The translations under genes and the position numbers were made by a program. From the NCBI GenBank assembly GCA_024975835.1, contig GCA_024975835.1_4840.1: a stretch of 64,000 bases of DNA; one strand, 5' to 3'. This stretch comes from a phage. Within the stretch, counting starts at the first letter, position 1; the number at the start of each line of letters is the position of its first letter. Positions 20,798 to 46,674 of the stretch are shown one piece after another. The notes beneath the pieces were generated by a model. It saw nothing but the letters and a program-made list of their open reading frames with translations, was not told the origin of the DNA and ran no database searches.

Positions 20798-20965
20798 ATT
20801 ACTTTTTCTTCAGCTCTTCCAGCTTGGCTTCGATTTGTTCCAGGATGTCCTTACCCTTCTGAACAATCACTTCACCGTCTTGCGCGTGTTTACGGAAGAC
20901 CAGAGCACCAGCTACGAAACCGACAACAACGCCAGGAAGCGCGTACACCAACAGATCTTGTAACA
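20798..20965 (-). CDS. small single-pass membrane protein (55 aa; below ORF-track cutoff)
   Basis: ATG at 20965 preceded by GTGAGGA; MLQDLLVYALPGVVVGFVAGALVF transmembrane segment then charged tail. Confidence 0.4.
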
Positions 20966-21002
20966 TGATAATATCCTCACTTTATAGGCGAGGATATTTA
21001 TA

Positions 21003-22241
21003 TCAGCGTTTCAAGAGTGTCATGAGGTTGACGCTATGTTTGCGCGGCTGCTTGTCCTCAACCTTGCGCACAGGCATCTTCAGGTTCGTACATACCTCGG
21101 ATGGTTCCCAGCGCGTACCCTTTTGCAGGTGCCAGATGTGCAGAGGAACGCCAGTCTCAAAGAACACAGGCATCTTCCACTTCTGGACGCCTGGAACGTG
21201 CCCTGCAGGAGCCTTTTCACACAACAGGGTATCTGGCAGCCAGAGCGAACGGGCTTCCCAGAGCGCTGCGCAGGAGTATTCAGGCCAGACGCGTTCCATG
21301 TAGTCTATCTCATCCCAGGTACGCTCTGCGTCCCACCCGATGTAACGGGTATTCTTCAGTCGGAAGAACTTCTTCAGCCAGCATGCACCGGAGGTTTCAA
21401 AGTTCAGACGGTTGATGAACGTCAGGTGCCCGAACTCAGCCACACAATCCTGGAACGCCTGCTCAAGGTCGGCCTCAAGGATGTCACACTCTTCATCCGT
21501 GATAGGACAACCGTTGATCTTTTTCTTCCCGTGTTTAGTCACCCAATCGTCACGGTTGGACAAGAACGCCGCGCCATTACGGTTGGACTCGCTTCCATCA
21601 CGATCACGCAGCATGAAGCCAGGGACGTCAATGGTGTATTCGTTCCCGAAGACCATGTTCAGGGCTTCCAGGAAGTTCCAGGCGCTCAGGCGACCGAAGT
21701 ATTTCCAGGACATCGCCGTGTCCCACAGCTGGGTGAATTGTTCTGTCTTATCGATGCACACCAACATCCCACGGAAAGCGTCATATTGAGTACGGCCAGC
21801 CAGCCAGTCAATATAGGACTGAACACACGGAATCATCTTGGACTTGCGGTAGCGACAGTCGGTATCGAATCGCATGCGTTCAAAGTTCAGGTTATACCAA
21901 TCAGAGAAGCGCTGCATCTCTTCCTTAGACTGAGGCGGCACAGGGAACTCACTGTAGATTGTCCACGGTCCGACAGCGTTATAGCAACAACCCCACAGGA
22001 ATGCCATCCAGATCTTGCGCTCGACTTTCTGTTCGAGGCTGATGCCTTCAGTGACTTCGATCGCATAGTCCATCAGACGCATCTGCTGGTTGTGCTCTTC
22101 TGTGTAGGACAGCGCCTCCACCCAAGCCTTGAGCAGGTACATGCGATTCTCAGGCTTGCGATAATCAACAGCCAGGTCAATCGGGTACTTCCATTCAGCC
22201 GGAGGCGTATAGCCCGTCGGCATTTTAGATAAATGATGCAT
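21003..22241 (-). CDS. conserved hypothetical protein (412 aa; candidate DNA-modification enzyme)
   Basis: Trp/Cys/Tyr-rich composition; the opposite-strand ORF is Arg/Leu/His-rich; sits with the P-loop kinase and HAD genes. Confidence 0.5.
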   Translation of the reverse strand: MHHLSKMPTGYTPPAEWKYPIDLAVDYRKPENRMYLLKAWVEALSYTEEHNQQMRLMDYAIEVTEGISLEQKVERKIWMAFLWGCCYNAVGPWTIYSEFPVPPQSKEEMQRFSDWYNLNFERMRFDTDCRYRKSKMIPCVQSYIDWLAGRTQYDAFRGMLVCIDKTEQFTQLWDTAMSWKYFGRLSAWNFLEALNMVFGNEYTIDVPGFMLRDRDGSESNRNGAAFLSNRDDWVTKHGKKKINGCPITDEECDILEADLEQAFQDCVAEFGHLTFINRLNFETSGACWLKKFFRLKNTRYIGWDAERTWDEIDYMERVWPEYSCAALWEARSLWLPDTLLCEKAPAGHVPGVQKWKMPVFFETGVPLHIWHLQKGTRWEPSEVCTNLKMPVRKVEDKQPRKHSVNLMTLLKR

Positions 22242-22581: not shown

Positions 22582-22781
22582 TTTGGTTCCTTGAATATTT
22601 TATAGCCAGCAGCGCCGATAGCCATAATCGCGCCGATACAATACAACATGGTCAGGTTCATCTTTTCTGAGGTTGTTAAGTCCAGAGGGGTGAAATGATA
22701 GGCTAGGGCAGTACACATTGAAACGGCTGCCATAACCAGACCAATGAACAACAGATAATTAGACAACCGTTTCATGATCAC
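22578..22781 (-). CDS. small two-helix membrane protein
   Basis: 67-aa ORF with two hydrophobic segments; ATGA overlap with kinase stop. Confidence 0.4.
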   Translation of the reverse strand: MIMKRLSNYLLFIGLVMAAVSMCTALAYHFTPLDLTTSEKMNLTMLYCIGAIMAIGAAGYKIFKEPK

Positions 22782-23695
22782 CCCTTCTTCATCAGGTCAA
22801 GGAGAGAGCGCGACGCTGCCTTCGTTGCTTCTGGCTGGGCGCTCGCCTTGGTTTTAGTTTTGGATGCCTTCTGCGGCTTCTCAGGGACTCTGTGCGCCAA
22901 AGGATCCTGGCCGCCGATTTCACGAGTCATCGGATTGGTTTCACAGTAGGCGTAGAAGTCTTTGGTGTCCATGTTAACTTCACGCAGTTCGGACCGTATC
23001 TGATGACAAATCGCATTACCCACAACCCACAGCGGGGCGTCGAACGGTAGTACCGCCAACTCGGACTGCTGTTTGGTCGTGAACTCCTGGGTGTTGGCGT
23101 CCGGTGATTTATACAGGATATCCTGTCCGCTGTAATCATCAACAGCCACAGTGAAGCCCAGCGCCAGCATTTCGGCCTTCGACTTCTCAAACTCCTTGTA
23201 GTAAGATTCGTTGCGCGACCAGCCGGAGTTCCCTGCTTCTTTACCAGATCGACCACGGATACGAGCATCGTACTGATAGCGGTCGGGGTACGCAAAGTAC
23301 AGCAGCGCCAATGATTCAATCGGATAGTTCTTGAACATCCATTCAGGACGCCATTTGTCCGATAGCATGAGGGGTTCACCCTCGCACACCAGAGTGTATC
23401 CCTGAACCAACCAGCACTTGATTAGATCACGAGCAATATCGCCTGAGCCTGTAGCAGCATGGATTGCATCCATTGAAGTCCAGGAAGCCAGGCCGGATTT
23501 GTTAGACACGGTGTACTGTCCAACGAAGATTAACTTCAGCTCTCCGAACTTCAAGCCAAACGGGCGAGTCTTGTCACCAACGGTGTAGGTCAGTTCGGTA
23601 GGCTCCAGCTTAGTGCGCAGCCATTCGATGAACTGGACCACTCTCGTACCCTTGCCCGTGGCCGAGGTGCCTTTCACTACGATAATTTTTGCCAT
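22778..23695 (-). CDS. P-loop kinase (candidate 5-hydroxymethyl-dU DNA kinase type)
   Basis: N-terminal Walker A IIVVKGTSATGKGTR; 305 aa; Lys-rich C-terminal tail; identity beyond P-loop kinase not established. Confidence 0.55.
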   Translation of the reverse strand: MAKIIVVKGTSATGKGTRVVQFIEWLRTKLEPTELTYTVGDKTRPFGLKFGELKLIFVGQYTVSNKSGLASWTSMDAIHAATGSGDIARDLIKCWLVQGYTLVCEGEPLMLSDKWRPEWMFKNYPIESLALLYFAYPDRYQYDARIRGRSGKEAGNSGWSRNESYYKEFEKSKAEMLALGFTVAVDDYSGQDILYKSPDANTQEFTTKQQSELAVLPFDAPLWVVGNAICHQIRSELREVNMDTKDFYAYCETNPMTREIGGQDPLAHRVPEKPQKASKTKTKASAQPEATKAASRSLLDLMKKG

Positions 23696-25157: not shown

Positions 25158-25193
25158 GGGGGAATTATATCCCCCTTTGGTTTATTGAATCAA
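25158..25193 (-). promoter_or_regulatory. sigma70-like promoter (TTGATT-N18-TATAAT) overlapping a GGGGG/CCCCC hairpin
   Basis: Minus-strand -35 TTGATT at 25193..25188 and consensus -10 TATAAT at 25169..25164 in the hairpin loop; follows the DNA polymerase stop. Confidence 0.45.
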
Positions 25194-28189
25194 CCTTTCT
25201 TCTTTTGCATCATGGCAAGAAGGTTCACACGGCGCTTGTGTGACCAGCCGACCACGTCGAGGATAGACTGAATCGGATCAATGAAGGACTTCTCAAAGGC
25301 CGCCTGATAATCCACCCATTTGCCCAGACCAAGCTCCTCAGGGAAGAACTCAGGATATGCGAAGTAATTCTGGCCGAATGGGTTGCCTGGCTTCAACAAC
25401 ACCATCTGTACCTTATCACCCGACTCGATCATCGGCAGGCCGAGATCTTCGTTCTTCTCAACCAGACGGTTGTAACCCACACAAGCCTTTGCAGCAAAAT
25501 GAGCACCAGAGATGAACGATCCGTCAGCAGCCACACACTTCTCTATGTCGGACACGCCTGACGCCTTGGCGATATCGTCTACAGAGAGTTTCATGTACTC
25601 CTCTTTGTACTGGGAGATGAGCGCCTGTACTTCCTCTTCGGTGCCGAGTAGGATCTTCTCATAGCACTTGACAAGGCGCTCACGACACCATTCCGGCGTG
25701 GTGGACTTGCGGGCTTCCAGACCTTTGAACTTGATCTTCGGCTTCTCGTACTTGATACCCTCACTGTCGTACACGGCCATGGCATACATCTTCTTGGCTC
25801 GCCAGACAGCGGCTGACGCAATGACCTCACGCTCCCACACCATGCGCTGTTCAAATCCGTTCATGGTGTTACATAGAAGCTGTGCCCACTCATTGGTCTT
25901 CGGCTGGTAGTTGTCTTTGATCCATTGGTCGATATTATCAACCATAGCATGATGGTCAGTAACATCAGGCCACAACTGCTTGACAAGACGCTCAATGCAG
26001 ATGTAGTTGGAGTCGGTATCCCCTGCGATGACGAAGTCCTGACCTGTTGTACCACACAGCTTGTTCAGATAGTCATCAGTGTAACGCTTGTTCCACTTGT
26101 TGATCAGCTGACCGGATGTGGTGATGGCTTCGGCAATGTTGAGGTTGAAGTACTCTTTGAACCAGACGTTTGAGATCGCGCCATAACCTGCGTTCATCAA
26201 GATCTTCAGACCTTGCTGAAGGGTATCTTGAGCAACGCCCAGATCTTCCCACTTCTTCATCACTTCGGTCAGTGCATCAAGATCAACGTTCTTGTGCTCT
26301 TCATACCACTCTGGGTCATAGTAGCGAGACTTCATGGCAGACTCAAGATGGAAGTCGCCCTTCGACATCTCTTTACACCAGCCAGCCCACTGCTCATACT
26401 TCAGACCCTTGGCCTTCTCTACTTTACGGTCGCTGTAGATACCACGCATGATTTCAGACAGGAACGACATCTTCTCGTTGCTGAAGAACTGAACGTTCGG
26501 CGTGAAGGACACGTTGTAGAGGCGCAGGGTTTCAAAGTGGAACTCACCCAGGGCAACCAACTCATCAACAACCTGCAGGCGTTCGTCAACCGCACGCAAC
26601 AGCTTGTCGTGAAGGGCTTTCATCAACCGACGTTTGTGCATCGGCGTTGCCATGTTATTCATCTGAGCAGCCAGCTCTTCACACATAGCCTCAATAATCT
26701 CGCGGCGCTGGTGTTTGTCGCCAACGATAGTCTCTGGACCGAGGTTGTACTGCTGAATGATGTGAGGATACAGGGAGTTCAAATCTTCCGAGAAGACCCA
26801 GAAGTAGATTCCTGGTGTCACATCCATGACGTATGCACCCTCAAAGTCGGTCGGACCATCGTATACACGCTGGATCTTAGGCACTATCCCCTTCTCGTAC
26901 AGGCGATAGTAGCACATGGCCAGCCACGGAGCCACAGTGCCCAGACCGTCTTCATAGTTGGACTTGGTGCGGTAGGCCAGGACGAACATCAGCTGGAGCA
27001 GGCGCAGCTTCTGTTCAAGTCGCCATACCAGCTTAACGTCTTTGATACCATATCGGGTGTGTTTGCAGTAGTCGTTGAAGTACAGATCAAAGAGCGACTT
27101 GCTCTCACTGTAGTCCATCTTCTTCTCACCCAGCTCACAATACGCAATCCAGTCAAGAGAGTAGCGTTCACGGGTGGTGTACGTGTGTTTCTTGTAGATC
27201 TGCATATAATCGAGCATAGGGCAACCCACGAACTGATACGTCGTGATATCGCCCTTCTTATCGCGAATGATACGCTTCTTAATGATACCCCAAGGACTGA
27301 GGCGCGACGTTTCAGCCTCTCCCAGAACCTGATTCATGCGCTCAACAAGATAAGGGCTATCAAACGTCTCAATGTTCCAGCCAGTCCATCCGTCGAACTG
27401 ACGCTCCGACCAGAAGTCCAGGAAAGAGCGCAGCAGGTCTTGTTCGGTGGTGAACTCCTGATAAACAACCTCCAGGCCGCCGATCTCTTTGTCTTCTGCG
27501 TCATAGGTGAATTTGTTACGATCTTTGGCGCACGGCATACCCCAGACCATGAACTTGTTGGTCGCCATATCCTGAAGCTGGATCAGGGTAATGGGGAACG
27601 CCGCATTCATGTCTTGGGTGATCTTGCCGTTGCTGTCAATGATAGGGAACTGATCAGTGACGTTGTTGCTGATGAAAGAACCAGGGAAGTGCTCACGGAC
27701 AAAATCATGGTTGGCCAGCACTTGTTTATGGAAGCGGCGAATGCGCGCCTCATTCCCTTTGAACGTCTGCTGCTCAATGGTTGGGTGAGGGAATGGACCT
27801 TTGGTCATCTTTCCGTCTTTCCACCCGGCGGAGAACACTTCGATATCGAGGTTAGCAATATGGATGTTGGAATAATCCGGCTCAATCTTTCCAGGAAAGC
27901 TATGGGCGATGAACTGGTATGCATAATCGGTCTGCCCGTAAATGGCAGCACCCTGGACTTCCTTGTACTCTTCAAGATAGTTGTCAGCGTCACGCATGGA
28001 AGGGAACTGCTTGGCTACCAGGGGTTCATTGAGAAGGCCAACCTTTTCAACATTTGAATAGTCAGCCGTGGGTAAATAGAGAGTGGGTTCGAATTTCTTT
28101 TTCAACAGACGGCGATTACCCATGTCATCTGCAATTCGAATCAACAGGTCATTGCCCCTGCGGGCAACGTTCGTATAGAAAACGGTCAT
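25190..28189 (-). CDS. 43: family B DNA polymerase (T4 gp43-like)
   Basis: 999-aa ORF with DLNSLYP (motif A), KILMNAGYG (motif B) and IAGDTDS (motif C); N-terminal exonuclease-region length. Confidence 0.9.
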   Translation of the reverse strand: MTVFYTNVARRGNDLLIRIADDMGNRRLLKKKFEPTLYLPTADYSNVEKVGLLNEPLVAKQFPSMRDADNYLEEYKEVQGAAIYGQTDYAYQFIAHSFPGKIEPDYSNIHIANLDIEVFSAGWKDGKMTKGPFPHPTIEQQTFKGNEARIRRFHKQVLANHDFVREHFPGSFISNNVTDQFPIIDSNGKITQDMNAAFPITLIQLQDMATNKFMVWGMPCAKDRNKFTYDAEDKEIGGLEVVYQEFTTEQDLLRSFLDFWSERQFDGWTGWNIETFDSPYLVERMNQVLGEAETSRLSPWGIIKKRIIRDKKGDITTYQFVGCPMLDYMQIYKKHTYTTRERYSLDWIAYCELGEKKMDYSESKSLFDLYFNDYCKHTRYGIKDVKLVWRLEQKLRLLQLMFVLAYRTKSNYEDGLGTVAPWLAMCYYRLYEKGIVPKIQRVYDGPTDFEGAYVMDVTPGIYFWVFSEDLNSLYPHIIQQYNLGPETIVGDKHQRREIIEAMCEELAAQMNNMATPMHKRRLMKALHDKLLRAVDERLQVVDELVALGEFHFETLRLYNVSFTPNVQFFSNEKMSFLSEIMRGIYSDRKVEKAKGLKYEQWAGWCKEMSKGDFHLESAMKSRYYDPEWYEEHKNVDLDALTEVMKKWEDLGVAQDTLQQGLKILMNAGYGAISNVWFKEYFNLNIAEAITTSGQLINKWNKRYTDDYLNKLCGTTGQDFVIAGDTDSNYICIERLVKQLWPDVTDHHAMVDNIDQWIKDNYQPKTNEWAQLLCNTMNGFEQRMVWEREVIASAAVWRAKKMYAMAVYDSEGIKYEKPKIKFKGLEARKSTTPEWCRERLVKCYEKILLGTEEEVQALISQYKEEYMKLSVDDIAKASGVSDIEKCVAADGSFISGAHFAAKACVGYNRLVEKNEDLGLPMIESGDKVQMVLLKPGNPFGQNYFAYPEFFPEELGLGKWVDYQAAFEKSFIDPIQSILDVVGWSHKRRVNLLAMMQKKKG

Positions 28190-29191: not shown

Positions 29192-29749
29192 ATGGCAATC
29201 GAAATTATCGCTCAATCCAAATCTGGTAAAACTGTAATGTACGGCACTGAAGAAGGCCGCGCAATCACCACTCTGGGCACAATTGACGGTTCCAACCCAG
29301 TGAAAGGCGGTCGCTACCTGGTTGAATACGGTTCACACCTGCTGATGGTAAGCAAAGTCGATGGTCGTGAAATCATGATTCCCCGCAAAGAGTACTTCGA
29401 CTCGCGCATTGAAGCCATGAACTTCTTCCTTTTCCAGGAACGTCACGAACTGTTCGTTGAAGCGAAAGACGCAGGCCTGGACGATGCGACTGCCGAACTG
29501 ATTGCCGAAGGTAAAATGTCCCTCGAAGAAGCTCTGGGTGACATGGATTGCGATGCTGAAGCCCATTACATCGAATATTCCGCTTATCAGAATGAATGCG
29601 AAGACGATCCTGAAGATGACGGCTTCGACCCTGACCTTCACGGTGGCGAGGATGACAATACTCCTTCCCTGGAAGTGATCATGGCAGGCGGCCAGGCCGC
29701 TTGGGAGTGGCAGAACGAAAAGAACGCCTGGCTGGATTCCCACCTTTAA
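29192..29749 (+). CDS. acidic hypothetical protein
   Basis: Start at ATG 29192 with AAGGAAAT site; strongly acidic C-terminal half. Confidence 0.5.
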   Translation: MAIEIIAQSKSGKTVMYGTEEGRAITTLGTIDGSNPVKGGRYLVEYGSHLLMVSKVDGREIMIPRKEYFDSRIEAMNFFLFQERHELFVEAKDAGLDDATAELIAEGKMSLEEALGDMDCDAEAHYIEYSAYQNECEDDPEDDGFDPDLHGGEDDNTPSLEVIMAGGQAAWEWQNEKNAWLDSHL

Positions 29750-29765
29750 TGTGAAGAAATAAAGA

Positions 29766-29784
29766 AAGGGGCTTAACGCCCCTT
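29766..29784. terminator. bidirectional terminator between convergent genes
   Basis: GGGGCTTAACGCCCC hairpin with T-tracts on both strands between the 29749 and 29788 gene ends. Confidence 0.55.
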
Positions 29785-29787
29785 TTC

Positions 29788-30246
29788 TTATTCTTCCCAG
29801 AAGTCTTCGTCGTCCCCGACAGCAGCCAGTTCCGTGTCCAGTTCTTCATCGGTAAACGGTGGCAGCACCCCGTTCTGAATCAGATAATCCATCTCATCAT
29901 CTTCCAGCTGCAGGTCGGTGGCAATATACAGCGCTCCGCTGCCCTCTTCGTCCGTCTCGATACTGTACGAAGTGTATGGCACCCCATTCACTGTAATGAT
30001 GATAGACGTTGGATCCTTGGGATCTACGTGCGCCTCGAACGGCACGCCATCAATCGGTGCGTCTTCCAGGAAGGTGGCAAGTGCTACGGCGGCGCGGACA
30101 ACATCAGTGCCTTCAACGCCTGCATAGATCTCTTCCGCGCCTGTCTCTTCACGATCAAACAGCTCAATCGTGATACCGTCTTGAACACCAGTCCATACAG
30201 GGATGTCATTAGTGTATTCTGATTCAAACAATTTGGAGGTTGGCAT
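29788..30246 (-). CDS. highly acidic hypothetical protein
   Basis: 152-aa ORF, Asp/Glu-rich throughout. Confidence 0.5.
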   Translation of the reverse strand: MPTSKLFESEYTNDIPVWTGVQDGITIELFDREETGAEEIYAGVEGTDVVRAAVALATFLEDAPIDGVPFEAHVDPKDPTSIIITVNGVPYTSYSIETDEEGSGALYIATDLQLEDDEMDYLIQNGVLPPFTDEELDTELAAVGDDEDFWEE

Positions 30247-30390
30247 GTTAGGTTCCTCAGTGGGTTAGCCATATGGGGTATTTAGGCTTCCCGCTTGGCG
30301 ATGCCTGGTTTGTACAGGACGCCTCTCGGAATATTGGAGGAAGGTTTTCATAGATACCCCACACTGGTTGTATGGGGTATTTAGGATGGA

Positions 30391-31584
30391 TCAGGAAGGG
30401 GTGAAGTCGTTCACAGGAACTGTTTCAGGGATAGCCAGCTCAGGGCATGCTGCCTTCATTGGCTCAATGTACGGCTTACTACCCACAATCCAGAACAGAG
30501 TGTTCTCATTGAGCAACTCTGGCTTGTTCTGCTGGATCCAGGTCATGACCTTGCCTTCATAGCGAGGATGCAACTCAATATCGCCCCACTGATATTCCAT
30601 CAGGTCATTATAACGAACCCAATTAGTGGTATGAAGATCCCAATGGTGTACCTCAAAGCGAGGAAGCACGACCTCTGGCTCTTCCTTCTGCCTGATACCA
30701 CTTAGGAGGCCAGCCAGCGAAACGCTCTTAGAGGCATGCTGAAGCTCCTTCTTGCCGTGTACATAGTCTGGGTTGTCGTGATAGCGACGGGTAAAGTCGA
30801 CAATGTGCGGCAGATTGGCATGTTTGCCGATGATGCGCAGGCGGCTCTCGATAAAGTCAAGGCGGTTAGGACCGATGCCGATTAGATACACACGCTTCAG
30901 ATTAGGCTTCGGATGCATTGCCAGCCCGGTCAGGATGCTTGTGCAAGAGTTGCACGATCCGGCTGGGATGATCAGGTCAGTAATGTGATCAGGAATGTTG
31001 GCAACCTGCTCGCCACCCAACATATGGAACCCAGCAATGCGCTCAGGGGAGTGGGCTGTATGGTCGAGGGTGATACCATACTCCAGATAATACGCCTTTG
31101 GATTCTGTTGTTCGATCAACTTCTTACAGCGCGGCTGGATGGTGCTGTTGTAACCCGAGCCGACGAAGTTGAACTCACTACCAAACCAGGCTGACATTGC
31201 CACCATTTCATGGTTCATACAGGTGGTGGGTTTGGTCGCGCCGAGCACAGTAGTTGTCTTGCCGCCGAAGTGCCGAGAGACTGCTGTCGCCATAGGGGAC
31301 TGCGGACTACCAACGACAGTACCATGGATGATGTCAGGGGAGCCTCCGGCCTTGAGGTGCTCAACCATCAACCAGATGGCCTGGCGGAGTTTGCTGCCAT
31401 TGATGCCCTGCTTGGCGTTGGCATAGTTAGACAGCGGCGCAAAATAATCTTCACGCTTGAACCAGACCTGCTGGTTGGTTTCGGGATTGACGACAAGTTC
31501 GCACGGGGTGTGCTTGTAGAGATAGTCTTCCCAGTGAACCAGATTGCGGTCGAGGGAAAGGGTATCGAAAATGGTCTTGTTCAT
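30391..31584 (-). CDS. PLP-dependent enzyme (fold-type II-like; candidate base-modification enzyme)
   Basis: About 400 aa with Gly-rich loops (IIPAGSCNSCTSILTGL) resembling tryptophan-synthase-beta/ACC-deaminase-type PLP enzymes; start moved to ATG with AGGAGAAA site. Confidence 0.5.
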   Translation of the reverse strand: MNKTIFDTLSLDRNLVHWEDYLYKHTPCELVVNPETNQQVWFKREDYFAPLSNYANAKQGINGSKLRQAIWLMVEHLKAGGSPDIIHGTVVGSPQSPMATAVSRHFGGKTTTVLGATKPTTCMNHEMVAMSAWFGSEFNFVGSGYNSTIQPRCKKLIEQQNPKAYYLEYGITLDHTAHSPERIAGFHMLGGEQVANIPDHITDLIIPAGSCNSCTSILTGLAMHPKPNLKRVYLIGIGPNRLDFIESRLRIIGKHANLPHIVDFTRRYHDNPDYVHGKKELQHASKSVSLAGLLSGIRQKEEPEVVLPRFEVHHWDLHTTNWVRYNDLMEYQWGDIELHPRYEGKVMTWIQQNKPELLNENTLFWIVGSKPYIEPMKAACPELAIPETVPVNDFTPS

Positions 31585-31654
31585 TCTATTTTCTCCTGTA
31601 GACATTGGTTTATCATAGTGTATCTACAGGAGTATAGAAAAGGAGAATCTCGGC

Positions 31655-32314
31655 TTATTTCTTGAATAAACGAAGGAACTTCATCATGTTTTCCATGAAA
31701 GTCGGCTTCTTGACCTTTTGTTTTACCGGAGCGCCCTGATCATTCAGAACACGACTGGCCGGAGGAGTAGGTGGTGTCGGTGCTTTCGTTTCACAGGCCG
31801 GAACGATGTTCACGTCATGATGAGAAGACTCAGCTGTAGTGTTAACAACATTGTTCTCCTGGACGACAGGCTTAACGAGATTCTTTTCATACTCGCGAGC
31901 AATCGCCTGGTACTTCCGATTCTCCGCGTCAAAGTCCATAGAAACGACTTTACGACGGCGGCGCGTCGCGCTCTCATCACCATAGAAATCGTATCCGTTC
32001 TTGACCAGCCAGTGTACAGCTTGGACAAATGAATGGAAGATCATGAACGGCTGGCCATTACCCTCTTCAGCAGCGGTGATGCCGGAGTAGCCCATGAGCA
32101 CAACCTGACCCTTTACGTCGAGGTCAAAAGATGTACATTCACCGTGCTGGTTCAGATCACGCGGAGCCAGCTGGGAATCACGATGGATATAATTCGGCGA
32201 CAAAAACTCATTCAGAGTTCGTTTGTTGCCTTTGTATTCAAACAGGCGAATACAGATGGGAGTCGTCAGTTCATGCCATTCGGCATCGTTGACCCAGATA
32301 GAAACATTACGCAT
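31655..32314 (-). CDS. hypothetical protein
   Basis: 219-aa ORF with GAGGA site; Pro/Thr-rich linker; promoter-like element upstream. Confidence 0.5.
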   Translation of the reverse strand: MRNVSIWVNDAEWHELTTPICIRLFEYKGNKRTLNEFLSPNYIHRDSQLAPRDLNQHGECTSFDLDVKGQVVLMGYSGITAAEEGNGQPFMIFHSFVQAVHWLVKNGYDFYGDESATRRRRKVVSMDFDAENRKYQAIAREYEKNLVKPVVQENNVVNTTAESSHHDVNIVPACETKAPTPPTPPASRVLNDQGAPVKQKVKKPTFMENMMKFLRLFKK

Positions 32315-32413: not shown

Positions 32414-32435
32414 AGCCGGATAAGGATATCCGGCT
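32414..32435 (-). terminator. rho-independent terminator closing the tRNA cluster
   Basis: Perfect 9-bp stem AGCCGGATA/TATCCGGCT followed by TTCTTTTGTCC on the minus strand. Confidence 0.55.
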
Positions 32436-32653: not shown

Positions 32654-32742
32654 TGGCGGAAGGTGAAGGATTCGAACCTTCGGGGGCTAAAAGCCCCACT
32701 CGATTAGCAATCGAGTCCCTTAAACCTCTCGGGCAACCTTCC
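32654..32742 (-). tRNA. tRNA-Ser (anticodon GCT)
   Basis: Hand-folded: acceptor GGAAGGT/ACCTTCC, anticodon arm CTCGA-TTGCTAA-TCGAG, long variable arm GGGGC/GCCCC, T-arm GAAGG-TTCGAAT-CCTTC, encoded CCA; 89 nt. Confidence 0.85.
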
Positions 32743-32962
32743 AATTTGGACGGGCTTCGCACCCGATTGAGCATTTGATCTACCGTAGCCCAACTCCCCG
32801 CGCTTCTCAGCGCCGATTGGTTAACTGGCGACCAGTGCCTTCTGGTTCGATCTCCTGGAACTTTACAGGCTTTGCGCCAGACCATTTCTGGAAGTTGGGG
32901 CATCGTTTCCGATGTGGAGTCACCCCATTTTATACACAGCTGGCTGCAACGCTTACTGTGTT

Positions 32963-33046
32963 TGGTGTGAGTGGATGGATTCGAACCACCGCGCTGTTAC
33001 GGGGAGATTTACAGTCTCCTGCATTCGACCGCTCTGCCACACTCAC
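32963..33046 (-). tRNA. tRNA-Tyr (anticodon GTA)
   Basis: Hand-folded: acceptor GTGAGTG/CACTCAC, anticodon arm GGAGA-CTGTAAA-TCTCC, extended variable region, T-loop TTCGAAT, encoded CCA; 84 nt. Confidence 0.75.
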
Positions 33047-33303
33047 ATTTGGTCTGCCGCTGCGTGCTGGGCCACGCTCGAGGACATCGGCCATCCTTCC
33101 TCAGCTAATCCACGCAGCGGTAGATTTGTATCAGAGTGTCCGGTGTAGCAACCCGTGAGGTGCGCACTACTGTAGCCTCTACACTCTGAATTTGGTGGGT
33201 GTTACTATCGTCGTCTTCGGATTCCGTTCGGCTATTGGACAGAGGCTTGGAGCTTGTCGGTCGCGTACTTTATGCCTATTCACTTTCGTTCACACCCATT
33301 GTC

Positions 33304-33379
33304 TGGCGACGATGGCAGGACTTGAACCTGCGACATATGGATTAACAGTCCACCGTTCTACCGACTGAACTACATCGTC
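33304..33379 (-). tRNA. tRNA-Asn (anticodon GTT)
   Basis: Hand-folded canonical cloverleaf: acceptor GACGATG/CATCGTC, D-arm GTTC-AGTCGGTA-GAAC, anticodon loop CTGTTAA, T-arm GCAGG-TTCAAGT-CCTGC, CCA; 76 nt. Confidence 0.85.
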
Positions 33380-33388
33380 TTGCAAATC

Positions 33389-33416
33389 ACTATACCATAT
33401 AAAGTTTATTGAACAA
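33389..33416 (-). promoter_or_regulatory. sigma70-like promoter (TTGTTC-N16-TATAGT, TG-extended) upstream of tRNA-Asn
   Basis: Minus-strand -35 TTGTTC (33416..33411) and TGgTATAGT -10 (33394..33389); predicted start falls within a few nt of the tRNA-Asn 5' end. Confidence 0.45.
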
Positions 33417-33550
33417 ACATTTATTTTACAACAAACTGTATTGGCGGGGTCTGAGGCTTTTCACCTCACCTGCTGGGTTTGGCCGCCCAGCCGTTCTCTA
33501 TGAGGATTCACTGTCCGGACAGCTATCCATTAAACTATCGCCCCTCAATA

Positions 33551-33627
33551 TGGTGATCCTGATTGGGTTTGAACCAATGACCAATGAATTATGAGTTCAC
33601 TGCTCTAACCGACTGAGCTACAGGACC
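33551..33627 (-). tRNA. tRNA-Met or tRNA-Ile2 (anticodon CAT)
   Basis: Hand-folded: acceptor GGTCCTG/CAGGATC, D-arm GCTC-AGTCGGTTA-GAGC, anticodon loop CTCATAA, T-arm ATTGG-TTCAAAC-CCAAT, CCA; Met versus lysidine-Ile not resolvable by eye. Confidence 0.8.
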
Positions 33628-35011
33628 AAATTATTGTGTGACCAACCAAGGACTGTCAACCCTTTATCCCGTTTGTGCATGATCAGTTCATACAGGCCTC
33701 TTTGTGCTGCCTCACGGCATGCGCTTCTGTTGGTCATTGGCTTACACTGTGGCCTCACAACAGGCGTTTATTTTTCCAGGGCTTTCCACTTACAAGTCTT
33801 AACCAGACCGGGATACGGGCTTGTAAGATCGGGTTGGACACAACTTTGAGGACACTGACGACGTATACGAGTCACCCATAACAGATATTCGGATGCCAGT
33901 GTCCTCAAAGTTGCAACCAATGTCGCAACTCGCAGCTTCCATACAGAAGCAACTTGTCCTCTAACGCTCGGACCAAACGAGGCTGGCTGGTTGATTCAGA
34001 GCCGCTGGTTGCTCCAGCAAGCATGGGTTGATAGCCCGGCAACATAGAATCACCCAAAGATGAAGAACATTCATGACTCACATCACACCACGAATGGCCT
34101 GAAAGAGAATCGAACTCTTTAAATGCTCTTCATTTTGTGAACTTGAGAATACTACGCCTGTCTCGGGTTTCCCCTTAGTTCGGCCTCCCAGTCCTCGCCG
34201 CGCCGGGTAGCTAACCCTGATGGCTCGTCTGCTACTGAGTTCTTCTTGGTGCCCACCAGTGTCCGGAATGTGTAGGCATCGCAATCTGCAAGGCATGGTC
34301 TATTTCACCCAATGCTCTCTCAAGTTCACAAATCGAAGTGCCCTGACTCAACAGTATGGCCCAATATGCTGTTATCGTCCACCGGATTGGCCGCCCAATT
34401 TGTAGATCAACCTTTGGGTTTAAGATAAATTGTCAAGGCACTTCGATTTGTGTGCCCTTCACCTGCCAGGGATCAGGGCTGATGGCAAGACTTCGCTCAC
34501 ATCTTTCAAGATACTCGTGAGAATATCCTCAAAGATGTGGAGCCGTTTTAGGGAGTCGAACCCAAATGCTTGGCCAGCGCTGACCTTACATCCCATCTGA
34601 CTTAGGCAACCCACCTCTGCTTACTCAGGAGCTTATCCCCTTTGGACAGTCAGATATAACGGCATTGTCGACGGGAGCTTATTAATCACACCCTCCCGTC
34701 TATTTTAGTGCGCCGAATTTGGTGATGAGGAATCGGAAGACCTCACTGACTTATAGGCTGTTACGCCGCCATCAGAACTTCGGAATCATTAGCAGTTATT
34801 TGCTTGGTCAGTTTCTAAAAACCCGCAAAGTCACTCACAACGAAAACGAAAACCTGTTTGAGCACAAGACGCCATGTCCTGGGTTCACATCGAAGTGTTT
34901 GTCTAATGCCCAAACAGCTTTTCGTTCAGTGGGTTAACTATACTTTGTAACCCGTTATTGACAAAACCTTAAATTAAGTTGCGGTGTACTCAAGACCACC
35001 GCACTATTAAT

Positions 35012-40773: not shown

Positions 40774-43700
40774 ATGGCTAATAAACCAACACAGCCTGTT
40801 TTCCCTCTCGGTCTGGTGGCTGAAGAGCAGTCTACTTTGGCTGGTGTCGTCAACACGGGTACGATTGAGCATGGACCAGATGCTGTCCTGACTTTACCCG
40901 AGGGTAATGCCAGCGCAGGACTCCCGTCTTCCGTTCGCTACAATGCCGACTCCGACGAATTTGAGGGCTTCTATGAAAATGGTGGATGGTTGCCGCTGGG
41001 TGGCGGTGGTATCCGCTGGGAAGTCCTTCCGCATGCCTCTACGGCAACGCTCACTGAAGGGCGAGGCTATCTCATTAATAATACCACAGGGGCATCTACA
41101 GTGGTTCTCCCTTCCCCTACGCGTGTTGGGGATTCTGTTACTATTTGCGACGCTTATGGGAAATTTGCCACTTACCCATTGACTGTGTCTCCTTCTGGAA
41201 ATAATTTGTATGGCTCCACTGAAGACATGGCTATAACAACTGATAACGTATCAGCAACGTTCACTTGGTCTGGACCTGAACAAGGTTGGATTATTACATC
41301 CGGCGTCGGTCTTGGCCAAGGTCGTGTCTACAGTCGTGAAATCTTTACAAAAATTTTGGCGTCTGAGACAAGTTCTGTCACTCTCAATACTCCACCAACA
41401 ATCGTGGACGTGTATGCTGATGGAAAACGTCTTGCGGAATCCAAATATTCACTAGATGGGAATGTAATCACTTTCAGTCCTTCTTTGCCAGCCAGCACAG
41501 AACTTCAGGTGATTGAATATACTCCTATTCAATTGGGTATTGGGGATGGTTCTGGCTCTTCCACGATTACCTGGGTCTATAATGGGGGTTCAGCGATTGG
41601 TGGTGAAACCGAAATCACGTTGGACGTCGTTGTTGATGATGTTCCGGCCATTGATATAAACGGAAGTCGCCAGTATAAAAATCTGGGGTTCACATTCGAT
41701 CCATTAACCAGTAAAATCACTCTTGCGCAAGAACTGGAACCAGAGGATGAAGTTGTTGTAATTATCAATGGAACACCAAACATCTATAATCAAATTGATC
41801 ATACTTTGCGGGAAGTTGCTCGCGCAACCAATGTTAAAGATACAGAGGTCGTTTATTTTAGTGTTGGTGCTGCGTTAAGTGGGTATAAAGTTATTTATGA
41901 CAAGGAGACGCAAAGGGCTTATCCCTTGCCTGCTGATATTGCCCCTGGTACTACTGCTGTCAGTCTTAGTTCTTCCGCTGTACTTGTGCATTCAGCGGGT
42001 TCTGTAGACCTCGGGGAATTGGCTGTTACTCGTGAAGAGTACGTCACATTGTCCGGAACATTTGATACTGGTGTAACAGTTAATACCAAGAATGAACTGG
42101 TTGTTTTTACTGATGGTAAGTACCGTTGGGATGGGGTGTTGCCTAAAGAAGTTTCTGCTGGCTCAACTCCAGAGACTGCTGGTGGTGTAGGTGCGGGAAA
42201 ATGGTTGAGTGTTGGTGATGTATCATTGAGAGCCGACTTACTGTCAGGTGGCATGACTGATTTAATTGGATTTCCTGGGTACAACAATCTTACAGCATTC
42301 TTGCATACCACTGTTCGTACAGTAGAAGAGTTCAGAAGTGACGGACTAACTGACGCACAGGTATTCCAAGCGGCAATCAATGCAGGTAACGTGCGTGTGC
42401 CAGCAGGTAGCGTTATTAACATCACAGGGAATATTGATATCACTATCCCAGCCAATCGTTTAATTGTTGTAGATGACGGAGGTATATTACGCTCTAACGG
42501 TCGTTTTACAGCTTACGGCGTAAACGATGTTCATTGGGTAATTAACGGACTAGTTGAAAGCACTGGCATGGTTGCGGCCCCGGCAAAATCTGGATGGCCC
42601 AATACAGCAGAAGGCACTCAAGCGGGAGATGAGCGTGGGTTTATTGAGTTTGGTGGTGTTGTATTCGCCGGTAACGATGGGAAGAATTATTCTGTAACTG
42701 GTTCAGGGCACATTCAGGGTCCATGGTCTGGAACTCCTAACGTTTCAGATTTAGCCAATCAGTTAAATAAAAAGGGTATTGCTGCGTGGAACTGCTCAGG
42801 ATTCACTGTTGAAGGCGTTAGTATCGACGGCTTTGAAGGTGAGCAAGTGTATTGGTTTGCTCGCAACGCAGACAACAGAGACGCAATTTTCAATAGAGTA
42901 AAAAGTACCAATGCACGTTTTAACGCCCTGAACATGAACGTGTACAGCGCAACAAAAAATATTCGTGTGATCGATTGTTACACCAATAATTCGTACAACG
43001 GAATTGAATCATCTGCTGGTGATATCATTAACACAATCCATGACAATCCGGTTAACACAGGTATTCTGTTTGGTTCAGGTACTGGTGGTGGCAACCGATT
43101 AATTGAAGGCAATCAGGTGAACGAATGCCTCGGAACACCTTATTCACTACTTTATAATAAGGACTATGAAAGTCGTGGGTATGTACCTAACGTTACAGTG
43201 GTAAACAACACCGCAACAAACCCCGGCGTTCACTTCATCGCCATCTCAGGCATCACTGGATTCAAAGTCGCCAACAATACATGTTACGGGCTTAAAACAG
43301 GTAGATTTATTCAGGCCACCGTTTTACAAGGCGGTATTATAGAAAATAATACTAACTACAAACCATCACCAGGGACAGAGCACGTCTATCGTGGCGAATG
43401 TTATAGCGTAGAAGAGCATAATAACGCGCGTGTACTTTTAGGCGGTTCGTATGTTACTGCCGCCGCGTCAGACCACGCCATAACCGGGGGGAATTCAAGC
43501 GCTATAACGACATTCGGCAATCGTGAAAACTTCAAGGATTTACGTGCTGACAGTCCAGCAATCGGAACTGGCGCAGAACTTAGATACTCTGTTGATATAG
43601 GCGCCGCATTTACTCCTGTATCGTTAAGTATGCAACTGACCACATATGGGGGTTCAGGCGCTCAAGCTGACTGGTCTATCAATAACCTAAAGATAAATCC

Positions 43701-44253
43701 TAATGATGTACTTGGGCAGTCATGGGTGTCTCGACATACAGGACATTGGGAACCTGGGACTGATGGTATACAAAATTTCGGGTCACCAACGCGCCGTGTT
43801 AACAACAGCTATTTCACGGTAGCGCCTACTGTAACGTCTAATGAAATGGCTAAAACTGCGCTGTTAGATCTATCTGAAGCAGAACGTAACGCGGCATTAG
43901 AAATTAAAGATAACATTCGCAAGTATAAGCTATTAGATGCTATCGCTATTAAAGGGGAGGATGGTGCCCGTTGGCACTTCGGTGTGGGTGCACAAACGGT
44001 AGGCGATATAATGAGAAAACATGGACTTAATCCTGCTGACTATGGGTTTTGGTGTCACGATACATGGGAAGACCAATACACGGATGTAATGAAAAAAATT
44101 TATACCGGAAATACCGTTGTAAATGAGGAAGGACTTTCAGTTCCTGAATACACATTAGAACCAACAGGTGAAAGGATGCTTGTTAGGACCGCCGGAGAAA
44201 ACTACGGCATTCGTTATGATGAATTGTCTATGTTTATATTAAGTGCAATATAA
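40774..44253 (+). CDS. tailspike protein with N-terminal anchor region, beta-helix and C-terminal chaperone-like domain
   Basis: 1159 aa; conserved about 130-aa module (VKDTEVVYFSVGA...KYRWDG) shared with the next tailspikes; Gly/Asn/Thr-rich beta-helix composition; start at 40774 because the promoter motif precludes the 40744 ATG. Confidence 0.7.
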   Translation: MANKPTQPVFPLGLVAEEQSTLAGVVNTGTIEHGPDAVLTLPEGNASAGLPSSVRYNADSDEFEGFYENGGWLPLGGGGIRWEVLPHASTATLTEGRGYLINNTTGASTVVLPSPTRVGDSVTICDAYGKFATYPLTVSPSGNNLYGSTEDMAITTDNVSATFTWSGPEQGWIITSGVGLGQGRVYSREIFTKILASETSSVTLNTPPTIVDVYADGKRLAESKYSLDGNVITFSPSLPASTELQVIEYTPIQLGIGDGSGSSTITWVYNGGSAIGGETEITLDVVVDDVPAIDINGSRQYKNLGFTFDPLTSKITLAQELEPEDEVVVIINGTPNIYNQIDHTLREVARATNVKDTEVVYFSVGAALSGYKVIYDKETQRAYPLPADIAPGTTAVSLSSSAVLVHSAGSVDLGELAVTREEYVTLSGTFDTGVTVNTKNELVVFTDGKYRWDGVLPKEVSAGSTPETAGGVGAGKWLSVGDVSLRADLLSGGMTDLIGFPGYNNLTAFLHTTVRTVEEFRSDGLTDAQVFQAAINAGNVRVPAGSVINITGNIDITIPANRLIVVDDGGILRSNGRFTAYGVNDVHWVINGLVESTGMVAAPAKSGWPNTAEGTQAGDERGFIEFGGVVFAGNDGKNYSVTGSGHIQGPWSGTPNVSDLANQLNKKGIAAWNCSGFTVEGVSIDGFEGEQVYWFARNADNRDAIFNRVKSTNARFNALNMNVYSATKNIRVIDCYTNNSYNGIESSAGDIINTIHDNPVNTGILFGSGTGGGNRLIEGNQVNECLGTPYSLLYNKDYESRGYVPNVTVVNNTATNPGVHFIAISGITGFKVANNTCYGLKTGRFIQATVLQGGIIENNTNYKPSPGTEHVYRGECYSVEEHNNARVLLGGSYVTAAASDHAITGGNSSAITTFGNRENFKDLRADSPAIGTGAELRYSVDIGAAFTPVSLSMQLTTYGGSGAQADWSINNLKINPNDVLGQSWVSRHTGHWEPGTDGIQNFGSPTRRVNNSYFTVAPTVTSNEMAKTALLDLSEAERNAALEIKDNIRKYKLLDAIAIKGEDGARWHFGVGAQTVGDIMRKHGLNPADYGFWCHDTWEDQYTDVMKKIYTGNTVVNEEGLSVPEYTLEPTGERMLVRTAGENYGIRYDELSMFILSAI

Positions 44254-44257
44254 CAAA

Positions 44258-44277
44258 AACCCCGCTTTGGCGGGGTT
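44258..44277 (+). terminator. rho-independent terminator
   Basis: AACCCCGCTTTGGCGGGGTT hairpin then CTTATTATAC. Confidence 0.5.
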
Positions 44278-44288
44278 CTTATTATACC

Positions 44289-44352
44289 TTTGTTCATAAA
44301 TTTATTAGTTCAGACTAAATACCCTATATTGGCAAATCCTTTATGGGGTATT
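44289..44352 (+). repeat. direct repeat copy 1 (intergenic promoter/leader cassette)
   Basis: About 64 nt nearly identical to 46949..47012 (one mismatch by eye), containing TTGTTCATAAATTTATTAG and CTAAATACCC. Confidence 0.6.
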
Positions 44353-44355
44353 ATC

Positions 44356-46674
44356 ATGATTTCTCAATTCAATCAACCACGCGGCTCCGCTTCCATAGAA
44401 GTTAACAAACAATCTATCGCTCGAAATTTCGGTGTCAAAGAAGACGAAGTCGTTTATTTCACTGCTGGTATTGATCTCAGTGGATTTAAAGTAATTTATG
44501 ATGAGACCACCCAACGGGCTTATTCTCTCCCTTCCGGTATTGTTTCAGGGACAACTGCAATTAGTCTGGACGAACGAGCTATCCTCACTCATTCCGCTGG
44601 TTCTGTTGATCTAGGGGAACTTGCCGTAGCCAGAGAAGAATATGTAACCTTACCTGGTTCATTTGATACCGGTGTAACCGTCAATGCTAAGAATGAATTG
44701 GTTGTCTTTACCGACGGCAAGTACCGTTGGGATGGGGAGATTCCCAAAATAGTACCTGTCAACACAACCCCTAAAGATACTGGGGGTGTTGGTCTAGGGG
44801 CATGGTTAAGAGTCGGCGATGCATCTTTGCGTTCTGAAGTTTACTCAAATATGGCTTGGGTTTCTCCTGAAATGTACGGTGCACTTGAAACGGAATCTGA
44901 TGCGGATACTCAAGCTGTTATAGATGCGTTTATTACCGCGAAGACAATGGGGCTGGCTGTGAAGCTGTCCAGAATATATAAGTGTGATCAAAACATATCA
45001 GTAGCTAATTTTTACGGAGATATTTTTGGCGTAAGTATGGCCACATGCGGAATAAAATTTGCTGCTGGATATGGTCTTATCATTGATAACTCTGGGACCA
45101 CAGTAGTACGCAAACCTGTAGGTCTTTGTAATTTCACCATTAAAGCCACTGGTAAACGACAAGGCACTGCTCTAGAGTTTCTAGGTACTGGTGGAATAGC
45201 TTATGCACGACAACTTATTGTAAGAGATTTAGATGTATCAAATGATGCTGGAACCCCTACCTCTTTTGATGTAGTATTCAAGTTAAACCGTGCAGGTCAA
45301 TGTGTATTTGATGGGGTGAATGTCGCTGGCGGTGGCACAAGCGACCCCAACGCTCGCATGGGCAAAATATTCGACCTGTACTCAACAAAGAATATCAATG
45401 TTGTCAACGGTTCTTATCAGAACTTCGACACCTTCATGTACGCGCATGACGATACCGAAGGTGTTGTGGTTTTCGGTAACCACATCATCGCAGGTCGTCG
45501 TGGTGTTGTCTCAGAAAACAATGTTGGCAACTTGTTCCAGGTAACGAACAACCACTTCAACACATCGTTGAGTGCTGTAGAGTTGGGCGATCTGTCTAAC
45601 AACGGTGGGAACCATAGCATAATCACCGACAACTTCTGTATGGTATGGAATGGGATTCCTGAAGATGATACTACGCCATATATCGGGTTCAAGTCCTGTG
45701 CCATGTACGGAACCTATAGTGATAATGAGGTGCTTCTGTCTGGTTTCACTAAAGACGTTACTCACACCTTGTTTACTTCTAATGCCACAGGGACCAGAAC
45801 GGCACAATACAATATAGTAAGCAACCCAAGAGTTAATAATTGTACCAGAGGCATTCATATGCTGGCTGGCACCCAATCGAACCATGTGAGCAACGTCCAG
45901 CGCGTAGGCGTAACACTGGCAAATGCCATCATAGATGAAGGGGCAAACAACAGGTCATGGATGTTTGATGTAGATAATAATGCATTTATGACCAGAAACA
46001 TAAAATTGTGCACTCCAGGTTCAGCCGTTGCGCAGCAAATTCGTTTTTACTCCGCTACTGATGCAAATACACCAAGCGCCATTCTCCGAGTATCTGGAGG
46101 CGTTGCCGGTGTTGGCGGGGATGGGACGGCAGAGCTTACTGCTGGTACTACCGTCTTTAAAAACATTAGACCGTCAGCTGCAAACACTTATAGCTGCGGA
46201 TCTAGCGGTGCACCGTGGTCTGGCGGGTTCACACAAACTGCATTCACCGTGACATCTGATGCTGATTACAAATCAGATCCACTGCTGATGACTGATGATA
46301 TTCTTGATGCAGCAGAAGAGGTACAACTTGTCCAGTATCAATATCTCGACAGGATTGAAGAAAAAGGAGCTGACGGTGCCCGCTGGCACTTCGGAGCCAT
46401 TGCACAACGGTATGTAGAGGCATTTGAAAGACACGGGCTTGATGCTCATCGCTTTGGGTTCATCTGTTATGATGAATGGGGTGATGCTCCTGCTGTCATA
46501 GATGAAGATACTGGCGAAGTGATCACGCCAGCTATTGAGGCAGGATCAAGATACGGCATTCGTTATGAAGAAATGCTGGTAATGGAAGCAGCGCTGCAAC
46601 GCAGAAACTATGCGCGGCTACTTGATAAATACGAAACACTTGAGGCTCGTATTAGCTCATTAGAGAATAAATAA
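44356..46674 (+). CDS. tailspike protein with C-terminal chaperone-like domain
   Basis: 772 aa from ATG 44356 (GGGG site); N-terminal module shared with the other tailspikes; C-terminal GARWHFG...YGIRYEE region shared with the first tailspike. Confidence 0.7.
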   Translation: MISQFNQPRGSASIEVNKQSIARNFGVKEDEVVYFTAGIDLSGFKVIYDETTQRAYSLPSGIVSGTTAISLDERAILTHSAGSVDLGELAVAREEYVTLPGSFDTGVTVNAKNELVVFTDGKYRWDGEIPKIVPVNTTPKDTGGVGLGAWLRVGDASLRSEVYSNMAWVSPEMYGALETESDADTQAVIDAFITAKTMGLAVKLSRIYKCDQNISVANFYGDIFGVSMATCGIKFAAGYGLIIDNSGTTVVRKPVGLCNFTIKATGKRQGTALEFLGTGGIAYARQLIVRDLDVSNDAGTPTSFDVVFKLNRAGQCVFDGVNVAGGGTSDPNARMGKIFDLYSTKNINVVNGSYQNFDTFMYAHDDTEGVVVFGNHIIAGRRGVVSENNVGNLFQVTNNHFNTSLSAVELGDLSNNGGNHSIITDNFCMVWNGIPEDDTTPYIGFKSCAMYGTYSDNEVLLSGFTKDVTHTLFTSNATGTRTAQYNIVSNPRVNNCTRGIHMLAGTQSNHVSNVQRVGVTLANAIIDEGANNRSWMFDVDNNAFMTRNIKLCTPGSAVAQQIRFYSATDANTPSAILRVSGGVAGVGGDGTAELTAGTTVFKNIRPSAANTYSCGSSGAPWSGGFTQTAFTVTSDADYKSDPLLMTDDILDAAEEVQLVQYQYLDRIEEKGADGARWHFGAIAQRYVEAFERHGLDAHRFGFICYDEWGDAPAVIDEDTGEVITPAIEAGSRYGIRYEEMLVMEAALQRRNYARLLDKYETLEARISSLENK

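Follow-up and report, generated by a model that had tools for sequence, protein, structure and literature searches.

The minus-strand gene at positions 30,391 to 31,584 of a 64,000-nucleotide stretch of phage DNA (the window, meaning the whole stretch that was analysed) very probably encodes the last enzyme of the Ackermannviridae 5-NeOmdU thymidine hypermodification, a fold-type II PLP decarboxylase acting on polymeric DNA; we estimate the probability of this reading at about 90%. The gene product is 92% identical to gp226 of Salmonella phage ViI over 394 aa without gaps, and its gene lies in the same gene order. The protein has a fold-type II fold with an invariant lysine, and the window also encodes both enzymes acting upstream of it. 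Substrate, chemistry and product of the window enzyme itself are those predicted by homology. A sequence-only reading of this DNA had linked the gene to the PLP enzymes by which the base substituent is completed in thymidine-hypermodifying phages, and the syntenic gp226 ortholog supports this for a ViI-like phage. The same reading held that neither the substrate nor the chemistry is evident from the sequence. This was too cautious, because both can be inferred from gp226 orthology in combination with a partner transferase 89% identical to ViI gp247.

Pooled lysates of five ViI proteins, among them gp226, rebuilt 5-NeOmdU on 5-hmdU DNA (Lee et al. 2018 PNAS, PMC5889632). According to Lee et al. 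2021/22 (NAR, PMC8989533), omission of gp226 from the lysate mix led to a nucleoside that was 44 u heavier. The purified protein was yellow with an absorbance at 410-425 nm, bound PLP and converted O-serinyl-thymidine DNA to a 301 u nucleoside corresponding to 5-(2-aminoethoxy)methyl-dU (5-NeOmdU), and exactly one carbon was lost in the presence of gp226 when the substrate was labelled with 13C3,15N-serine (PMC8989533). 5-NeOmdU was measured in the Kuttervirus phages ViI and CBA120, and the modification genes are conserved family-wide according to the same review (PMC11721090).

The steps of the pathway were established for ViI (PMC5889632, PMC8989533). Applied to the window phage, 5-hydroxymethyl-dU would be put into DNA at replication, and its hydroxymethyl group would be phosphorylated by the 5-hmdU DNA kinase, a copy of which is present in the window. 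In the following step, the transferase would replace the phosphate by the side-chain oxygen of free serine. The O-serinyl-thymidine expected from a transferase of the ViI gp247 type retains a free alpha-amine and would be the substrate of the decarboxylase. The PLP enzyme would then take off the carboxylate of O-serinyl-thymidine in polymeric DNA. Presumably, PLP is bound to Lys65 as internal aldimine until it is taken over, by transaldimination, by the free alpha-amine of the DNA-tethered serine. From the resulting external aldimine, CO2 would be expelled, followed by reprotonation of the carbanion. Release would leave 5-(2-aminoethoxy)methyl-dU in the DNA, by which many restriction endonucleases would be blocked.

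Kinase and transferase genes are located on the same strand as the PLP gene (Table 1). The distance of about 7 kb between the PLP gene and the kinase cluster, as given in the sequence-only reading, is correct, and the DNA polymerase gene lies in between. Paralogs of the transferase, the kinase or the PLP enzyme were not found in the 64-kb window, and no further ADDT or HMUD2 match was obtained among 10 ORFs scanned with Pfam. Going by the gene numbers of ViI, three further pathway genes are expected outside the window, namely those for the first kinase (ViI gp67), the clade-1 aGPT-Pplase (ViI gp160) and the dUMP hydroxymethylase. They are not contained in it, so that the window covers the pathway in part.

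Table 1. Coordinates of the PLP gene, its leader, the partner enzymes and neighbouring features in the window.
Feature	Position	Strand	Remarks
Predicted PLP-dependent O-serinyl-thymidine (DNA) decarboxylase CDS	30391..31584	-	397 aa + stop; ortholog of ViI gp226 / Vi01_182 / YP_004327553; PHROG 3650; AF2 model
Predicted Schiff-base lysine codon	31390..31392	-	K65 (397 aa) = K72 (404-aa frame) = ViI K92 = M6 gp52 K36; translates NGSKLR
Predicted leader RNA hairpin	31584..31639	-	pairs AGGAG (31597..31593) and first base of start codon; MFE -20.6 kcal/mol, z -4.1
Upstream co-oriented ORF, 219 aa, function not assigned	31655..32314	-	homolog of ViI Vi01_181 (orf224), 49%
Terminator-like hairpin between tRNAs and PLP operon	32435..32414	-	terminator scan
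tRNA cluster Ser-GCT, Tyr-GTA, Asn-GTT, Met-CAT	32654..33627	-	ARAGORN, Rfam
Sigma-70-like site TTGACA-18-AATAAT, near-consensus	33659..33630	-	promoter scan
Downstream co-oriented ORF, 152 aa, function not assigned	29788..30246	-	homolog of ViI Vi01_184 (orf227), 64%
Bidirectional terminator-like hairpin	29764..29786	both	after 152-aa ORF; terminator scan
DNA polymerase	25190..28189	-	86% to Vi01_190; between kinase/transferase pair and PLP gene, as in ViI
5-hmdU DNA kinase 2, makes 5-phosphomethyl-dU leaving group	22778..23695	-	ortholog of ViI gp243 (Vi01_196), 84%; PF18747 HMUD2 E 7.7e-158
Amino-acid:DNA transferase (aGPT-Pplase clade 2)	21003..22241	-	ortholog of ViI gp247 serine:DNA transferase (Vi01_199), 89%; PF18724 ADDT E 4.5e-60

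In the ORF listing, the minus-strand frame runs without interruption from 30391 to 31605 and comprises 404 aa. The ORF of roughly 400 aa described in the sequence-only reading is thus real, and the end coordinate given there, 31584, is a better start than 31605. The AGGAG at 31597..31593 constitutes a Shine-Dalgarno (SD) sequence 8 nt 5′ of the ATG at 31584. The same ATG is present in ViI and in one Agtrevirus relative, embedded in a near-identical leader of 75 nt, and the PHROG 3650 profile match (E 1e-238) starts at residue 8 of the 404-aa frame. The spacing of the AGGAG, the ATG shared with ViI and the start of the PHROG 3650 match therefore point to a product of 397 aa with a computed mass of 45 kDa and a pI of 6.7. 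The ATG at 31605, which would give the 404-aa version, was rejected as start codon as it lacks an SD sequence and as ViI and the conserved leader use the ATG at 31584.

The PLP protein belongs to PHROG 3650, an unnamed family labelled 'unknown function', and 752 homologs were collected. Its best protein-level match, with 98.7% identity, is a protein of Agtrevirus AV101, while identities across Kuttervirus, Limestonevirus and Taipeivirus range from 87 to 95%. At the nucleotide level, megablast retrieved the gene from 268 phage records, all except two of which bear enterobacterial host names (best match: Escherichia phage YX22, 95.9%). A detailed comparison with ViI gp226, which is itself annotated as 'orf00226' (Vi01_182, YP_004327553), revealed the same start codon, the same leader and the same lysine (K92 in ViI, K65 in the window protein). 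The neighbours correspond as well, namely the tRNA region, the orf224 and orf227 homologs, the DNA polymerase, the gp243 kinase and the gp247 transferase. The two proteins differ by an N-terminal insertion of about 27 aa located right after the shared ATG, which extends ViI gp226 to 424 aa compared to 397 aa in the window, and by 33 scattered substitutions, none of which falls into a family-invariant column. Moreover, gp226 and orf227 of ViI are separated by an additional small gene, Vi01_183, which is without counterpart in the window. All features of the gp226 family that are amenable to sequence tools were found in the window gene. By these measures it is an ordinary, family-wide ortholog of the ViI gp226 enzyme and as such already known. 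The comparison with SP10 proposed in the sequence-only reading is not applicable, as a PLP enzyme was not detected in this phage (Table 3 in PMC5889632).

Pfam assigned residues 33-256 to PALP (PF00291; E 2.5e-7) with 30.8 bits, which is below the gathering score of 35 bits for this family; some of the homologs carry a precomputed PF00291 match. An AlphaFold2 model built on the family alignment reached a pLDDT of 90.6 and a pTM of 0.89, and its sole low-confidence segment is an insert at residues 286-307 (404-aa frame). Foldseek comparison of the model with the PDB yielded 356 matches at E<=1e-3, and all of the matches listed are fold-type II PLP enzymes. Leading among the matches listed are D-cysteine desulfhydrase 4d8t and the ACC deaminase homologue 1j0a; TrpB, O-acetylserine sulfhydrylase (OASS), serine dehydratase and threonine synthase were retrieved in addition. 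Identities in the structural alignments are in the range of 12-18%. 1j0a is also the template taken by Lee et al. for gp226. Together, the model and the Foldseek matches bear out the assignment to fold-type II made in the sequence-only reading, with the Pfam PALP match remaining below its gathering score.

ACC deaminase and D-cysteine desulfhydrase (1j0a, 1tzk, 1rqx, 1f2d, 4d8t) represent the closest solved folds, with Foldseek E values of 1e-10 and target-normalised TM scores of 0.6-0.7. Their Schiff-base lysine motif and their (D/H)PxYEGK motif align with the phage protein. At the sequence level, ACC deaminase was reached only with the family profile (E 1e-5, about 110 residues). In the profile alignment, GINGSK-LRQ is placed on GGNK(51)TRK(L) of ACC deaminase, which brings the invariant lysine onto the known Schiff-base Lys51. 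HPxYEGK is placed on DPVYEGK, a segment that is not significant by itself. K65 is invariant in an alignment of 44 homologs chosen as a spread of the PLP family down to 42% identity. About 38 columns besides the lysine are invariant across the family, among them N69, G70, S100-P101-Q102, G216, N219 and H346-P347-x-Y349-E350-x-K352 (404-aa frame, 44 sequences). PMC8989533 proposes the equivalent ViI K92 as the internal-aldimine lysine on the basis of structural threading. Both the fold-type II fold and the predicted Schiff-base lysine, for which the sequence-only reading had recommended structure prediction, are hence present. The phage protein differs from ACC deaminase and D-cysteine desulfhydrase in being about 60-70 aa longer and in carrying the low-confidence insert 286-307. 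Furthermore, their substrates are free small molecules, which they deaminate or desulfurate, whereas the ortholog of the phage enzyme decarboxylates a DNA-attached residue. Alpha-decarboxylation is atypical for fold-type II PLP enzymes. The invariant S-P-Q loop of the phage family corresponds to S-N-Q in ACC deaminase, and it is a matter of speculation whether this loop and Y349/E350 steer the reaction to decarboxylation.

A second known enzyme with related chemistry is gp52 of Pseudomonas phage M6 (YP_001294560), the PLP-dependent C-alpha-glycinyl-thymidine decarboxylase that makes 5-NedU and likewise acts on an amino acid that is tethered to DNA and has its alpha-amine free. A KRED..APL...SK(L/I)R motif is common to both proteins, in which K36 of M6 gp52 aligns with the lysine of the window protein. 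The similarity is remote only, as reflected by an hhalign E value of 5e-4 with 22% identity over 175 columns; a BLASTP comparison of the window protein with M6 gp52 was not significant. With 278 aa, M6 gp52 is much shorter than the window protein. In addition, the M6 reaction requires a radical-SAM isomerase beforehand, and the M6 gene is part of a tight cluster with transferase, radical-SAM enzyme and kinase.

The distance to M6 gp52 is of importance for the possibility that the Agtrevirus-like lineage has the same DNA-acting type of PLP enzyme, but uses another amino acid or another PLP reaction, so that the final base would not be 5-NeOmdU. Our literature search did not find a nucleoside measurement for any Agtrevirus, and clade-2 transferases of other phages use glycine, putrescine or diaminopropane. 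Moreover, a close relative (locus L001) has a kinase-2 variant of 49% identity with a 235-aa extension, which shows that an exchange of pathway genes is possible within the genus. Even so, a different adduct is unlikely. Transferase (89%) and decarboxylase (92%) are far closer to their ViI counterparts than would be enzymes of differing specificity, as illustrated by the barely detectable M6 gp52. 5-NeOmdU was measured in Taipeivirus phiHS2 (bioRxiv 10.64898/2026.05.19.726188), and the PLP enzymes of Taipeivirus, with 87-89% identity to that of the window, are more distant than the ViI enzyme.

The names 'threonine dehydratase' and 'threonine ammonia lyase' in GenBank and UniRef, along with D-cysteine desulfhydrase and ACC deaminase as closest solved folds, would fit a conventional small-molecule enzyme that reshapes host metabolism, be it a threonine dehydratase (ammonia-lyase), an ACC deaminase or a D-cysteine desulfhydrase. 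Several results make this very improbable. The identity to these enzymes is only 12-18%, NCBIfam models gave no match to the PLP protein, and a phmmer search of the PDB with the single sequence returned no match at E<=10. In contrast, the 92%-identical ortholog acts biochemically on DNA-borne O-serinyl-thymidine (PMC8989533), and distant family members are linked or fused to transferase and kinase genes. Given the orthology to ViI gp226, the fold-type II fold and the Schiff-base lysine, the protein therefore neither lacks a PLP-binding lysine or fold nor appears to be a conventional amino-acid enzyme, the two outcomes that would have spoken against the sequence-only reading. Least probable by far is that the protein is a relic without activity, or that it retains the PLP fold for a structural or regulatory function without catalysis. 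The sub-threshold Pfam score is a nonspecific hint in this direction, against which stand the intact ORF with its strong SD sequence, the invariance of the lysine and the further columns, the high-confidence structure model and the maintenance of the gene at 87-99% across hundreds of phage genomes.

Searches with ViI proteins (tblastn) showed the window to be collinear, in mirror image, with the 108-157 kb region of ViI, gene for gene, from the terminase and tail-spike module over the tRNA region to the DNA polymerase and further. The separation of the PLP gene from its partners was examined in 79 viral-contig loci with family members, about 55 of them divergent (<= ~51% identity) and about 24 of the Ackermannviridae type. 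In about 50 of the 55 divergent loci, the PLP gene adjoins the transferase gene or is fused to it, and a kinase gene lies within 2.3 kb; fusions with transferase and/or kinase occur in loci L047 and L060. By contrast, none of the approximately 24 Ackermannviridae-type loci contains a transferase or kinase gene within 3 kb of the PLP gene. Owing to this difference between dispersed Ackermannviridae-type and clustered divergent loci, dispersal is a lineage trait of the Ackermannviridae. The layout, which had been called unusual in the sequence-only reading, is so only relative to the distant relatives, in which the PLP gene abuts transferase and kinase. Within the Ackermannviridae it is conserved and has been described before (PMC5889632), and the scattered genome organisation of the family was noted in a review (PMC11721090). 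A radical-SAM isomerase adjoining the PLP gene was not detected in the 79 viral loci using M6 gp53 as seed.

Four tRNA genes and a promoter-like site are located upstream of the PLP gene, and to this extent its description as downstream of the tRNA region promoter is valid; the 219-aa ORF and a terminator-like hairpin intervene, so that the gene does not follow the promoter directly (Table 1). A tRNA region 5′ of the PLP gene recurs in Taipeivirus, Miltonvirus, Nezavisimistyvirus and one Vibrio phage. An Rfam search over the window returned nothing besides the four tRNAs.

The current GenBank labels of the protein, 'hypothetical protein' and 'threonine dehydratase', are under-annotations. A better name would be PLP-dependent O-serinyl-thymidine (DNA) decarboxylase of the 5-NeOmdU pathway. 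In conjunction with kinase and transferase, the PLP gene predicts 5-NeOmdU in the phage DNA and resistance to many restriction enzymes, which would be relevant to cloning, sequencing and phage therapy. Beyond the correction of annotation, the gain is small. The only item that is possibly new is the predicted hairpin hiding the ribosome binding site of the PLP gene.

The leader of about 75 nt is nearly invariant between the window and ViI, even though the preceding ORF is only 49% identical. The predicted hairpin formed by this leader is near-identical in ViI and one Agtrevirus relative. In Miltonvirus and Nezavisimistyvirus, the stem sequences are different, but CTCCT(T) again pairs with AGGAG. 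That the architecture is kept with different stems in at least three Ackermannviridae lineages argues for selection on structure and not on sequence alone. Limestonevirus Coodle and the Vibrio phages lack the hairpin. In three sequence-distinct hairpin variants, the calculated probability that the SD sequence is paired was about 1.0, compared to a median of 0.59 for 12 control genes of the window with a strong SD sequence, none of which reached 0.95.

The hairpin loop carries a -10-like box, TATGATAA or TATACAAT. In T4 gene e (lysozyme) and I-TevI, the SD sequence of early transcripts that read through the leader is masked by a hairpin, and late transcripts, which start at a promoter within this hairpin, are translatable. 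The PLP gene resembles these cases in its stable and conserved hairpin, which would pair the SD sequence and the first base of the start codon, and in the -10-like box within the loop. This amounts to no more than a resemblance. The leader element occurs once in the window, a recurring promoter motif matching the loop box was not recognisable elsewhere in it, and the T4-late-like TATAAATA and related boxes displayed no informative pattern there. A literature search for transcriptome or promoter data of Ackermannviridae found nothing relevant. We tentatively consider that translation of the final hypermodification enzyme might be gated by the conserved leader hairpin, a possibility that we regard as rather less than even. 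RNAs reading through from the tRNA/early promoter further upstream would then stay untranslated, while transcripts begun at a putative promoter in the loop, or processed there, would be translated. If true, such gating would set the timing of decarboxylation with respect to replication and serine transfer. The conserved hairpin over the ribosome binding site hints at a temporal control of the last pathway step.

The Shine-Dalgarno (SD) sequence of the PLP gene, together with the initial base of its AUG start codon, is hidden within a strong leader hairpin, the loop of which harbors the -10-like sequence TATGATAA. Comparison with the leader of Salmonella phage ViI revealed near-identity, in contrast to the ORF upstream of the PLP gene, which is only 49% identical between the two phages. 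In Miltonvirus and Nezavisimistyvirus, the architecture of the leader hairpin is kept while the stem sequences are different. By analogy with T4 gene e, where a leader hairpin hides the SD sequence and a promoter inside the hairpin gives translatable transcripts, the PLP leader hairpin may confer translational gating. The distant Ackermannviridae-like Vibrio phage D503 displays a different arrangement, in that a terminator and a TTGATG-17-TATAAT promoter are located upstream of its PLP gene instead of the leader hairpin. In this phage, an RNA polymerase sigma factor is annotated directly downstream of the PLP gene (L006:2360-3537).

A second case of an SD sequence within a hairpin was observed in the window directly downstream of the amino-acid:DNA transferase gene. 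Here, the T4-late-promoter-like sequence TATAAATA is positioned directly 5' of hairpin ATATCCTCGCCTATAAAGTGAGGATAT, whose 3' arm contains a GAGG ribosome-binding site.

Locations of features in the window and in compared loci
Feature	Location	Strand	Remark
PLP gene leader, ~75 nt	window 31584..31655	-	compared with the ViI leader
Promoter-like box and hairpin	window 20966..21002	-	upstream of small ORF 20802..20966
tRNA genes	window 32654..33627		Ser, Tyr, Asn, Met
tRNA genes	L001:14293-15102		five tRNAs
Kinase-2-position gene, 532 aa	L001:3706-5304		annotated 'endonuclease'; equivalent to window 22778..23695
Fused ORF, IMG/VR contig	L047 2914-5187		PLP domain and amino-acid:DNA transferase
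Fused ORF, IMG/VR contig	L060 2131-5421		PLP domain, kinase and transferase
Tail-spike region	window 40774..50000
550-aa ORF	window 12086..13738	-
918-aa ORF	window 13683..16439	-
Type II topoisomerase subunits	window 4722..7965		near the 550-aa and 918-aa ORFs

The neighbourhood of the PLP gene differs from that of ViI in small accessory ORFs, since Vi01_183, Vi01_185c and Vi01_186c, which adjoin gp226 in ViI, gave no tblastn match in the window (regions compared: window 29749..30391 and L002:33853-35523). The close relative Salmonella phage vB_CECAV_050 (L001) differs from the window in tRNA content and spacing, with an extra tRNA-Trp between tRNA-Asn and tRNA-Met, yet the surrounding genes are approximately 95% identical.

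The gene at the kinase-2 position of this Agtrevirus phage encodes a protein with an N-terminal extension of 235 aa. Identity to the window kinase amounts to only 49% across the C-terminal 295 aa of this protein, with the exception of the last ~50 aa, which are near-identical. It appears that a hypermodification gene has undergone mosaic replacement or fusion inside Agtrevirus. Fusions involving the PLP domain were found in two IMG/VR contigs, and both ORFs agree with the fusions already reported in PMC8989533.

Exchange of receptor-binding domains is known for Ackermannviridae. The ViI tail-spike proteins match the tail-spike region of the window through their N-terminal 140-400 aa only, and the GC content of this region is 43-45%, lower than the approximately 50% elsewhere. 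This pattern is consistent with swapped receptor-binding domains.

The 918-aa ORF yielded zero Pfam matches, and the only Pfam match of the 550-aa ORF was to an N-terminal helix-turn-helix.
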